Origin: an uncultured Clostridia bacterium
GTDB taxonomy: Bacteria; Bacillota; Clostridia; TANB77; CAG-508
Reading direction: 5' to 3'
NCBI GenBank assembly: GCA_944389125.1
Contig: CALXLF010000012.1
Coordinates: 60-64,059 of the forward strand
Length of the DNA stretch: 64,000 nucleotides
Shown: positions 32,667-34,690 of the stretch, in pieces
Position numbering within the stretch: the first letter of the stretch is position 1
Layout of the letters: every line of letters begins with the position of its first letter
Position numbers and translations under genes: made by a program
Notes under the pieces: model-generated
The model's input: only the letters and a program-made list of their open reading frames with translations
Database searches by the model: none
What the model was told of the DNA's origin: nothing

Positions 32667-33374
32667 TTAATTAAGTGCCTGATAAATTATCTCAAAGAAG
32701 CCTGCTGCTCCAAATATTATAACAGCTAATATTAAAGTTCTAACAAGCTCTCCTTTTTCTTGTGCTTTTTCTGAAGCTGCTGAAGTTGTAAAATATTTTA
32801 TACCTACAACTGTAAATCTTATAATAATATAACCAATTCCAAAAACTTGAATAACTCTTAATATAGTATTCAAAATCAACATAAATGTAGAATTTTGTGA
32901 AGATGAAGATAAACCTTGAGATGTATTTTGGAATTGATTTATTACATTTGAAGTATATGAACTATTATCAAATGCTGATGCAATTAGTTTAAATAATGGA
33001 TAAGCTCCTATAATAATAAGACATATTATTATCCATCCAGCTAATTCTTTTTTTGCAGCAGCTTTGTTTCCTGCATTACTCATACCATATTTAACTGCTT
33101 TATAAATAGTAAGTGCTATTACAATAACACATCCAGCAAAATATAATACTTGAGCTATACCGGTTATTAAATTCATATTTATTGAAATTCCCATTGAATT
33201 CAATTTATTCTGTCCCATTTGCATAAATGTATTAGAGCCATTTCCTATTTGGCTAATTACATTATCTCCGGCAGTAGCAGCTTGTACCATTACTGGATTA
33301 CTAAATATATATAAAATTCCAATTAAAAATATAAAACTTATAATTAATACATTTTTTCTTATATTTTTTGTCAT
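32667..33374 (-). CDS. Polytopic membrane protein (235 aa) consisting of signal peptide plus two tandem VirB2/TrbC-pilin-like modules
   Basis: NKAAAKKELAGWIIICLIIIGAYPLF and SEKAQEKGELVRTLILAVIIFGAAGFF repeat the KAExKK+TM motif of the small pilin-like genes. Confidence 0.5.
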   Translation of the reverse strand: MTKNIRKNVLIISFIFLIGILYIFSNPVMVQAATAGDNVISQIGNGSNTFMQMGQNKLNSMGISINMNLITGIAQVLYFAGCVIVIALTIYKAVKYGMSNAGNKAAAKKELAGWIIICLIIIGAYPLFKLIASAFDNSSYTSNVINQFQNTSQGLSSSSQNSTFMLILNTILRVIQVFGIGYIIIRFTVVGIKYFTTSAASEKAQEKGELVRTLILAVIIFGAAGFFEIIYQALN

Positions 33375-33539
33375 AATTAAATCTCCAAAACTCTACAAAA
33401 TATAACTAATTAATTTTATTATACTTAATTTTTTTATTTTTTTCAACAAATTCTCGCATTTTTTTATTTTTTAATATATTTGTAATATATTTAATTTGTA
33501 AAACATAATGCATTTTCAGTATTAATTTAAAACAAAAAA

Positions 33540-33590
33540 AAGAACTATTTAAAATTCTCTTTTTTAAATAGTTCTTTTTAATTTATAATA
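33540..33590. terminator. Intra-operon hairpin terminator/attenuator downstream of the three pilin-like genes
   Basis: Inverted repeat aagaactatttaaaa/ttttaaatagttctt flanked by A/T runs; overlaps stop of 33578..33889. Confidence 0.5.
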
Positions 33591-33889
33591 TCTTTTAATA
33601 TATACTCAACTAGCTGCTCAGCATAATAAATTATATTTGTTGCACCGATTAAAACTACGGCTCCAATTACATAATTAATAAATGATTTTTTTAATTCAGC
33701 TTTCTCATGTGGTCCACGAGCTGTCATATATCTTATTGACATATATGTAAGCATTATTAATGCTAAACCAGTTCCTATAAGCCTTACCCAATTAAGAACA
33801 TATCCTATTGCTGTACGCTCTGCTTCAATAATATTACCAGCAACTGGAGCATTATCTAAAAGATTTGTTATAGGATTTGCCAAAAACAT
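33578..33889 (-). CDS. VirB2/TrbC-like pilin candidate (103 aa, no obvious signal peptide; two TM helices)
   Basis: PHEKAELKKSFINYVIGAVVLIGATNII motif; paralog of next two genes. Confidence 0.5.
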   Translation of the reverse strand: MFLANPITNLLDNAPVAGNIIEAERTAIGYVLNWVRLIGTGLALIMLTYMSIRYMTARGPHEKAELKKSFINYVIGAVVLIGATNIIYYAEQLVEYILKDIIN

Positions 33890-33902
33890 ATGCTTTACCT
33901 CC

Positions 33903-34283
33903 TTAAATAGTATTTATATTTCCTTCAATAAATTTTTGAAGAATCTTTAAAATTGCAGATGCGCTAAATAAAATTACTGCCCCTGTAACATAAGCTGGTA
34001 TTTGTTTTTTTACTTCAGCTTTATCAGCAGGATGAGTTGTATTCATATATCTAATACCAAGAACAATAAGCATTATTATTGCAATACCGGCTCCAGCTAT
34101 TGAAACTATATTAATAACTGTTCCCATCGTTTTATAAATAACATTTCCTGTATTTCCTGCAGTGTAACTTTCCACTTTATTATAATCTGGTGTCCATGCA
34201 TATGCATATTGAGCTGTACTTATGAATATAATCATTAATACAAAAATAATTCTTAAGATTCTTTCAAATTTTTTATTTCTCAT
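33903..34283 (-). CDS. VirB2/TrbC-like pilin candidate (126 aa; signal peptide plus TM hairpin)
   Basis: Signal peptide ...AQYAYA; ADKAEVKKQIPAYVTGAVILFSASAILKILQKFIEGN. Confidence 0.55.
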   Translation of the reverse strand: MRNKKFERILRIIFVLMIIFISTAQYAYAWTPDYNKVESYTAGNTGNVIYKTMGTVINIVSIAGAGIAIIMLIVLGIRYMNTTHPADKAEVKKQIPAYVTGAVILFSASAILKILQKFIEGNINTI

Positions 34284-34312
34284 ATTTTTCCCTCCGCTCT
34301 ATGTAATATATT

Positions 34313-34690
34313 TTAAAAAACATCATTTACAAAATATGTTATAAATTTTAAAATTCCTGACGCAGCAAATAGGATAACAGCTCCTATAAAATATGTAGGA
34401 ACATCTTTTTTTAGTTCTGCTTTCATTTCTGGGCTTGATATTATGTATTTTATTCCAATTATAATCAATATTAATAATCCCATACAAAAAGCCACAATTC
34501 TTACTATGTCAAGCACAACTCCTGCTGTTTTATTTATAGTATTATCAACTATTTCAAATTTAGTTCCTTCAGCTGTATATGAATCAAATTGATTTACACT
34601 ACCATAATCTTCAGCATGTACAACAACTGTGCTTAAACAGAATAAAATTAAAAATATAAATAAAATTTTAAAAATTACTTTATTCTTCAT
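34313..34690 (-). CDS. VirB2/TrbC-like pilin candidate (125 aa); first gene of operon
   Basis: Signal peptide ...VVHA; PEMKAELKKDVPTYFIGAVILFAASGILKFITYF. Confidence 0.55.
   Translation of the reverse strand: MKNKVIFKILFIFLILFCLSTVVVHAEDYGSVNQFDSYTAEGTKFEIVDNTINKTAGVVLDIVRIVAFCMGLLILIIIGIKYIISSPEMKAELKKDVPTYFIGAVILFAASGILKFITYFVNDVF

Follow-up and report, generated by a model that had tools for sequence, protein, structure and literature searches.

A probable VirB2-type pilin hairpin shared by free pilins, a tandem double pilin and VirB6-like proteins in a type IV secretion-like operon of an uncultured Clostridia bacterium

We analyzed a stretch of 64,000 nucleotides (nt) from an uncultured Clostridia bacterium (contig CALXLF010000012.1 of assembly GCA_944389125.1, positions 60 to 64,059), here termed the window, which carries an operon resembling a type IV secretion system (T4SS). 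Four small pilin-like proteins, a protein of 235 amino acids (aa) and three large VirB6-like proteins encoded in the window share a recurrent membrane module, whose nature is the subject of this study. The closest described counterparts of the small proteins are the VirB2/TrbC pilins (Pfam families PF18895 and PF04956), which likewise are small, have a signal peptide, two transmembrane (TM) helices and a short charged loop, and are encoded beside virB3 and virB4. In the window, however, the domain also appears doubled in one chain and at the head of polytopic proteins of far greater size; among the paralogs, one is without a signal peptide and another is an orphan outside the cluster. The large proteins are best compared with VirB6 (TrwI of R388; 7o3v, 8rt9), also a hydrophobic multi-helix protein encoded beside virB4 and the best, if weak, PDB fold match of the 385-aa protein among them. 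In R388 VirB6 only the two N-proximal helices, alpha1 and alpha2, sit in the membrane, where they form the VirB2 recruitment site (PMC12857230, PMC11294453), and the pilus is thought to grow on a VirB6 pentamer (PMC12857230, PMC11294453, PMC12624023). These helices, the only TM anchor of the protein, occupy the position of the pilin-like hairpin described below. Unlike TrwI, the window proteins have a signal peptide and an N-terminal extracellular domain, and they show no sequence match to TrwI or to Pfam TrbL/VirB6; a VirB2-like sequence relationship of TrwI alpha1/alpha2 has not been reported.

Several whole systems resemble that of the window. The T4SS of Patescibacteria (PMC12102498; Southlakia epibionticum) is also of monoderm type, with PrgI/VirB3, VirB4, VirB6 and tandem, divergent PF18895 pilins; such VirB2 paralog arrays, of 2-11 PF18895 pilins, are already known there and are mostly relaxase-less and chromosomal (PMC12102498), as in the window. 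The host here, in contrast, is represented by an uncultured Clostridia metagenome-assembled genome (MAG), and the Patescibacteria papers mention neither a pilin-like hairpin in VirB6 nor a double pilin. Integrative and conjugative elements (ICEs) of Mycoplasma carry the same trio of genes, namely Mbov_0395 ('pilin-like' at NCBI), Mbov_0396/MMCAP2_0566 (a polytopic TM protein) and Mbov_0397 (VirB4), but in a different order, and whereas these elements encode a VirD4 coupling protein and are conjugative, the window operon has neither a type IV coupling protein (T4CP) nor a relaxase. The idea that VirB2 is missing from Gram-positive T4SSs is under revision: PrgF of pCF10 is an experimentally supported VirB2-like protein with two TM helices and a charged loop, modelled as a pilus on a VirB6 pentamer (bioRxiv 10.64898/2025.12.18.695078). 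Unlike the window system, pCF10 has a single pilin and a single VirB6, and we detected no sequence or profile similarity of the window families to PrgF or PrgH, nor between PrgF and PrgH with these profiles. Proliferation of VirB6-like and VirB2-like genes within one system is also seen in the Rickettsiales rvh T4SS. VirB6 and VirB2 each occur there as several paralogs, alongside 'extended VirB6' proteins; the system differs in being diderm, alpha-proteobacterial and unrelated in sequence, and a shared VirB2-VirB6 module is not reported for it. Individual reports describe VirB6 proliferation in Rickettsia (PMC2653234), VirB2 amplification in Anaplasma (PMC12102498) and extended VirB6 proteins with large hydrophilic domains (PMC12857230). 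Pilin arrays, extended and multiple VirB6 paralogs and models of VirB2 assembly on VirB6 are thus already known. A sequence-detectable VirB2-type hairpin serving as the N-proximal membrane anchor of a VirB6-like protein was not found in the literature searched, and we found no paper on a VirB2-like hairpin inside VirB6, in agreement with an earlier note on this DNA, which had held the feature to be absent from descriptions of canonical VirB2 and VirB6.

The recurrent module is rather probably one homologous domain, the VirB2-type pilin hairpin (T4SS_pilin, PF18895). The earlier note had described a motif, [P/A][D/E]xKAE[V/L/I]KK, in the four small genes; its core is present in all four, but the prefix fits only two, the others reading PADKAE and PHEKAE. 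Among the six-frame open reading frames (ORFs) of the window, KAE[VLI]KK occurs four times, once per small pilin gene, as against 0.01 in shuffled sequences. A looser pattern, [KR]AxxKx5[YW], occurs nine times (0.66 by chance), and eight of these sites lie in the four pilins, in module 1 of the 235-aa protein and in the three large proteins. The charged motif that the note had reported for the large proteins is indeed found in each, on minus-strand genes as described: AEDKARFKEM at aa 76 of the 1285-aa protein, EEKARIKTMF at aa 176 of the 928-aa protein and AKDRARYKEV at aa 185 of the 385-aa protein, every time between two hydrophobic helices. It had been taken for a helix-capping motif but is actually the short basic loop between both helices of a complete VirB2/T4SS_pilin hairpin. 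Similarity extends over about 68 residues that take in TM1, the loop, with conserved I-[KR]...A-x-x-K...[YW], and TM2. Hydropathy and the alignment of nine modules show two TM helices and a short charged loop, and AlphaFold2 secondary structure shows helix-turn-helix pairs. Hardly any gaps are needed to align the nine modules, in all of which the A and the second K of KAxxK are kept; identity between the pilin and VirB6-like hairpins is low, at 20-28%.

Profile searches set these proteins apart from the rest of the window. Each of the four small proteins lies above the gathering score of PF18895 (26.6 bits), with 52.3, 42.6, 35.6 and 32.7 bits (E 6e-14 to 8e-8), and TrbC/VirB2 (PF04956) is their second, near-threshold Pfam match. 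A hidden Markov model (HMM) built from the four small proteins only and searched against all window ORFs matched module 2 (4.5e-11) and module 1 (0.01) of the 235-aa protein and the 928-aa (4e-7), 385-aa (3e-5) and 1285-aa (2e-3) proteins; the next best ORF, at 0.08, marks the start of noise, so that eight proteins stand apart from all others. Wider alignments comprised 28 sequences for the pilin family, 25 for the 385-aa family and 12 for the double-pilin family. With hhalign, the pilin family aligned to the 385-aa family at 93.8% probability (E 1.8e-7) over 68 columns, which cover the first hairpin only and none of the later helices, and to the double-pilin family at 97.1% (E 5e-11). In the reciprocal direction, the VirB6-like family HMM matched both modules of the 235-aa protein as well as the small pilins, the latter with E values from 1e-8 to 2e-3. 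Invariant columns coincide, pilin A89/K92/Y98 falling on VirB6-like A189/K192/W198, with pilin I77-R78 aligned to L177-R178. The earlier note had set profile-profile comparison beforehand as its refuting test; significant similarity was found among the segments, beyond that of TM composition, and of the two readings it offered, a common interaction surface or a common evolutionary building block, the latter is the better. On balance we favor the view that a VirB2-type hairpin occurs here in three formats: as four free pilins, as one pseudo-dimer and as the first TM hairpin of three VirB6-like proteins.

The hairpin is widespread among relatives of the 385-aa protein. An exhaustive profile search with the VirB6-like profile returned 4825 cluster representatives at E <= 1e-3, 2573 of them at E <= 1e-30. 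The pilin HMM matched 100 of 147 representatives at E <= 1e-3, and every best match inspected was placed on the N-proximal hairpin. PF18895, an independent Pfam model, matched 53 of 83 diverse relatives. Some relatives (P0009, P0010) show the hairpin in their precomputed Pfam annotation; it is latent in the databases rather than hidden. In this lineage, the N-proximal hairpin of VirB6-like proteins is itself pilin-like.

All genes of the operon, including those for the three large proteins, lie on the minus strand. The 385-aa protein (27807..28964) consists of a signal peptide, an N-domain, the hairpin (aa 144-212, nt 28329-28535) and more hydrophobic helices, at least five in all. Its gene starts 10 nt downstream of virB4; a polytopic gene beside virB4/virB3, as expected of VirB6/TrbL, is thus present, and the arrangement is kept in related loci L001-L004 and L006-L007. 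The 1285-aa protein (17837..21694; hairpin aa 37-105, nt 21380-21586) continues into a long hydrophilic C-terminal part with an SLBB domain (aa 1006-1060, E 2.7e-9), and the 928-aa protein (15029..17815; hairpin aa 134-209, nt 17189-17416; pilin-family HMM E 2.4e-7) into an acidic, coiled one. In each the hairpin is the first TM pair. The three are paralogous over a membrane domain of about 250 aa in which the hairpin is followed by a helical linker and by further hydrophobic helices that carry a conserved Y-x-x-R...P...Q-P-x-H...Y signature (blastp of this domain: 1285 against 385, 3e-22; 1285 against 928, 4e-29; 928 against 385, 2e-25). Because the large proteins are paralogs of this one domain, their hairpins would represent one ancient event and not three. 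Hence, where the earlier note counted hairpins in all three VirB6-like proteins, the VirB6-like label is plausible but the three are not independent cases.

Two further observations concern the 385-aa family. In the distant locus L007 the ortholog looks split (1773-3537) into a 363-aa ORF with the N-domain and a 221-aa ORF with the membrane domain, which may reflect a frameshift, an assembly error or true gene fission. In addition, the double-pilin family aligned in hhalign with the 385-aa family over 185 columns (84% probability), which placed the N-domain (aa ~60-135) opposite hairpin 1 of the double pilin; the idea that this N-domain is a degenerate first hairpin was not adopted and is kept as a lead, as the pilin HMM finds no match there.

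We consider it likely that the large proteins are VirB6-like in role, though members of no curated VirB6 family. The AlphaFold2 model of the 385-aa protein (pLDDT 77.8) has TrwI/VirB6 as its top PDB match in Foldseek (7o3v_J, prob 0.99, E 0.07, TM-score 0.33/0.44), and chains of the R388 stalk (TrwJ/VirB5-TrwI/VirB6) fill five of the nine top ranks. Among the 83 relatives, NCBIfam models matched 60 for MMCAP2_0566 (NF045848, E <= 0.01, best E 8.5e-12), 38 for Mbov_0396 (NF045889) and 7 for pLS20_p028. In the window itself the 385-aa protein scores 26.4 bits with NF045848 and 25.3 bits with NF045889, and the 928-aa protein 20.2 bits (NF045848 E 2.9e-4), as against cut-offs of 90 and 70 bits, respectively, for the two models; these matches fall on the hairpin region. 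Judged by such scores, the window proteins are related to the CDS16-type family of Mycoplasma ICEs but are not members of it. A 2025 review calls CDS16 a likely VirB6-like component (PMC12857230).

A different account of the large proteins is that they are pilin-fusion subunits, minor or tip pilins inserted in a filament by the hairpin and displaying extracellular domains, rather than a VirB6 base platform. The hairpin does lie near the N-terminus, after the signal peptide, and long hydrophilic extensions follow it, that of the 1285-aa protein bearing an SLBB domain; SLBB domains are usually extracytoplasmic. No Pfam VirB6 match and no VirB5-like tip protein were identified. The SLBB domain in the C-terminal extension would also fit an arrangement like that of R388 VirB6, with the pilin-like hairpin as the sole membrane-spanning part. 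A fusion pilin would not, however, account for the hydrophobic multi-helix domain of about 180 aa that follows the hairpin and is conserved in all three proteins, for the best fold match being TrwI/VirB6, or for the relationship to the Mycoplasma CDS16-type proteins, and the 385-aa paralog, encoded directly after virB4, has no display domain at all. Extended VirB6 proteins with large hydrophilic domains are, moreover, a known class (PMC12857230). We regard the pilin-fusion account as unlikely and continue to prefer VirB6-like platform proteins headed by a pilin-like hairpin.

Several points weigh against this reading. The PF18895 threshold is missed by the 235-aa protein (13.8 bits, over its C-terminal half), the 385-aa protein (21.7 bits, aa 147-213) and the 1285-aa protein (23.1 bits, E 7.8e-5, aa 37-98), and the 928-aa protein has no match in the Pfam scan. 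Profile comparison of TM segments is more error-prone than that of soluble domains. VirB6 identity is carried by a weak fold match and by sub-threshold NCBIfam scores; Pfam TrbL/VirB6 (PF04610) matches neither the window proteins nor any of the 83 relatives, no Pfam family covers the VirB6-like family, and profiles of the 385-aa, pilin and wider VirB6-like families found no VirB6 and no VirB2 among PDB sequences. PrgF and PrgH of pCF10 have no such similarity, so the feature may belong to certain lineages and not to VirB6 at large, and we do not claim the relation for all VirB6 proteins. Finally, the filament is putative.

The low identity, the sub-threshold PF18895 scores of the large proteins and the tendency of TM profiles to give false positives would also be expected if the likeness were convergent, that is, if a TM pair with a short positive cytoplasmic loop owed its form to the positive-inside rule and hydrophobic composition, or to constraints set by a lipid or partner in common, instead of to ancestry. 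Controls speak otherwise. We took 138 hairpin segments of diverse 385-aa relatives and shuffled residues within 8-residue windows, which keeps composition and the TM/loop layout. Real segments scored a mean of 20.3 bits with the pilin HMM, about 19 bits more than the shuffles (1.6 +/- 3.4, 99th percentile 11.3), and reversed segments scored 3.6; 95% of the real hairpins exceeded the 99th percentile of the shuffles. Other membrane proteins of the window and related loci, among them PrgI-like and colicin V-like proteins, gave no score with pilin HMMs, nor did the later TM helices of the VirB6-like proteins. PrgF, whose hairpin is genuinely VirB2-like and has a charged loop, reached only 4% probability in hhalign against the pilin profile, and PrgH only 0.2% against the VirB6-like profile. 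Since shuffled and reversed sequences, other TM proteins and PrgF/PrgH all score low, a generic hairpin does not produce the signal. Together with the invariant positions of both families standing in the same columns, this makes convergence a quite improbable explanation.

Three of the free pilins are encoded in tandem at the head of the operon. The first (34313..34690, 125 aa; hairpin nt 34340-34543) has a predicted signal peptide ending at VHA, before ED, carries KAELKK and matches PF18895 with E 9.8e-9 (35.6 bits). The second (33903..34283, 126 aa; hairpin nt 33939-34145; signal peptide predicted to end at AYA, before W) matches with E 6.5e-11 and reaches 27.3 bits with PF04956, for which the cut-off is 27.9; one of its 34 homologs is labelled 'VirB2 component (pilin)' by JGI. 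The third (33578..33889, 103 aa; hairpin nt 33623-33817) starts 13 nt past the preceding gene and has no signal peptide, and it gives both the strongest PF18895 match (E 6.2e-14) and the best match of any small pilin to the VirB6-like family HMM (E 1.3e-8). The orphan (43378..43758, minus strand, 126 aa; hairpin nt 43408-43614; PF18895 E 7.7e-8, 32.7 bits) carries KAEIKK and lies about 8.7 kb from the cluster amid housekeeping-type genes. A signal peptide is present in three of the four. Identity among the four paralogs is 18% in the mature N-terminus and 24% in the C-tail but 40-51% in the hairpin. Greater variability at the predicted outward-facing ends would fit variation of an exposed surface, and is compatible with the antigenic or functional variation that the earlier note suggested for the four paralogs.

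The 235-aa protein (32667..33374) comprises a signal peptide, hairpin 1 (aa 67-135, nt 32970-33176), a Ser/Asn/Gln-rich linker and hairpin 2 (aa 163-234, nt 32673-32888). The two modules in tandem that the earlier note saw here are both matched by HMMs; with the pilin-family HMM they score E 1.3e-5 (module 1) and 4.5e-13 (module 2). AlphaFold2 predicts two helix-turn-helix pairs, at a pLDDT of only 54, so that the model is read for secondary structure only. Both modules are present in all 12 homologs (231-245 aa). We found no description of a tandem double pilin in the literature searched. At the corresponding position of locus L004 (5413-6259) there are ORFs of 74 and 148 aa with weak pilin-HMM matches, which may be due to frameshifts, assembly errors or true gene fission.

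A single minus-strand operon extends from about 34690 down to 283, in a window of low G+C content (24-34%). Transcription begins with the three small pilin genes (125, 126 and 103 aa) and the double-pilin gene. Next come a PrgI/VirB3-like protein of 114 aa with two TM helices (32276..32620; PF12666 PrgI E 0.0018, sub-threshold), which is not among the pilin HMM matches and so is not pilin-like by HMM, and a 429-aa protein annotated as TraC-like (PF26593) in precomputed annotation of identical loci. The T4SS signature gene follows, a VirB4-like ATPase of 666 aa (28974..30974; P-loop_TraG, DUF87, AAA_10) that matches the NCBIfam models for CD1110-type VirB4 (4.6e-60) and Mbov_0397 (3.6e-57), both below equivalog cut-offs. 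After virB4 are the 385-aa protein, a duplicated two-gene cassette with an additional 295-aa gene in the middle of the operon, the polytopic 1285-aa and 928-aa proteins, small bitopic proteins and, late in the operon, two giant proteins; the final gene encodes 201 aa. The operon is chromosomal, and an unrelated integrase/Rep element lies beyond it (locus L010). Copies of the operon, some near-identical and others more distant, are present on metagenomic contigs and in MAGs of uncultured Clostridia; a genome scan with the 385-aa protein as the single query identified one locus, in an uncultured Clostridia MAG. In tblastn searches of plasmid and phage collections the 385-aa protein had no match, and by such sequence searches the T4SS-like system is on no deposited plasmid or phage.

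Neither a coupling protein (VirD4/T4CP) nor a relaxase was found in the operon (283-34690) or just past its end, so the operon has no detected counterpart of the DNA-transfer module that accompanies the mating-pair formation module of a conjugative T4SS. Elsewhere in the window there is a separate small integrative mobilisable element (45869-55247) with a tyrosine integrase (45869-47065), an FtsX-type permease (51136-53433) and a Mob_Pre relaxase (54306-55247), the only relaxase found. We rejected this relaxase as a part of the T4SS, as it belongs to the separate integrase-bearing element and housekeeping-type genes intervene. The lack of coupling protein and relaxase, together with the chromosomal context, suggests a role other than conjugation, as proposed for Patescibacteria.

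The same lack could mean that no extended pilus is made, and that the hairpin proteins are stationary subunits of a membrane- or wall-spanning channel in an apparatus without T4CP, whose paralogs and fusions set the stoichiometry of a hetero-oligomeric ring. A covalent double hairpin would suit such a fixed ring, and conjugative pili have yet to be visualised on Gram-positive bacteria (bioRxiv 10.64898/2025.12.18.695078). By Pfam, however, the small proteins are bona fide T4SS_pilin/TrbC-type proteins, variation is greater at their outward-facing ends than in the hairpin, as would be expected of exposed subunits, and the Patescibacteria pilin arrays and PrgF of pCF10 have both been interpreted as pilus-forming. 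A channel of stationary subunits therefore seems to us an unlikely alternative to free pilins that can enter a filament.

A second shared module was seen elsewhere in the operon. The C-terminal ~75 aa of two probable cell-wall hydrolases of 332 aa (22604-23602) and 288 aa (25264-26130) resemble the N-domain of the 928-aa protein, which is extracellular and contains ...LTNINIFQ; ...LTNINIFE forms the end of the hydrolases. They also resemble, weakly, the N-domain of the 385-aa protein. The counterpart in locus L007 is annotated NlpC/P60, and positions 67-134 of the VirB6-like family HMM match the C-termini of hydrolase-like ORFs in L004 and L007. The shared element may, from sequence likeness, serve to dock the hydrolases to the platform. 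Both hydrolases are the smaller members of the tandem-duplicated cassette (22604-27792; 520 + 288 aa and 518 + 332 aa), and their C-terminal ~110 aa are nearly identical to each other. The giant proteins of 1897 aa (948-6641) and 1980 aa (7528-13470) each carry a TM segment around aa 68-112 and, at the C-terminus, domains of lysozyme type, with Phage_lysozyme2 (E 1e-20) plus a GDSL lipase in the former and a weak Phage_lysozyme match in the latter; locus L006 has a counterpart of 1258 aa. They could be VirB1-like wall-remodelling enzymes or secreted effectors.

An AxA-type signal-peptide site is predicted in seven of the eight hairpin proteins. After cleavage, every copy of the hairpin would have its N-terminus outside, its loop in the cytoplasm and the C-terminal end of TM2 outside, the cytoplasmic placement of the loop in the membrane following from the positive-inside rule. 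The corresponding loop forms the lining of the lumen in those VirB2 pili that have been solved (bioRxiv 10.64898/2025.12.18.695078). Since the N-proximal helices of R388 VirB6 recruit VirB2, we infer that pilins may be docked or templated pseudo-homotypically on the VirB6-like proteins. By analogy, the pilin-like hairpin of these proteins would be a membrane-embedded docking or template unit, on which free pilins might pack by contacts of the pilin-pilin type and from which they would then be raised into a filament or conduit. In the loop, the invariant residues that the two families share might be bound by one and the same partner, which could be an anionic lipid head group or else the VirB3/VirB4 extraction machinery. 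Of the other formats, the double pilin and the signal-peptide-less pilin probably act as minor or adaptor subunits, and the paralogs with variable outer ends probably as alternative major subunits.

A bolder and more doubtful possibility is that the VirB6 platform of these monoderm T4SSs, a large and mostly uncultured lineage, is built on a true VirB2 hairpin, VirB6 having arisen from a pilin by extension or fusion; its pentamer would then be 'layer zero' of the filament, and the double pilin a covalent adaptor between base and filament. If true, such an origin would explain physically why VirB2 is recruited to, and nucleates on, VirB6 alpha1/alpha2. A parallel would be the flagellar export gate, in which hairpin-built FliP/FliQ/FliR templates the rod.

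How VirB2 is recruited to VirB6 and nucleates there is an open question in the T4SS field, and the current model of VirB2 on VirB6 draws on AlphaFold models together with mutagenesis and the analysis of co-evolution. Where the VirB6 hairpin can be recognised as a pilin, as in this lineage, pseudo-homotypic docking by way of the invariant A, K and aromatic loop residues becomes a testable hypothesis. The family also brings into view thousands of uncharacterised VirB6-like proteins outside any Pfam family. For the Clostridia, the operon provides an example of a chromosomal T4SS with a pilin array and without a coupling protein, a type of system so far discussed mainly for Patescibacteria.

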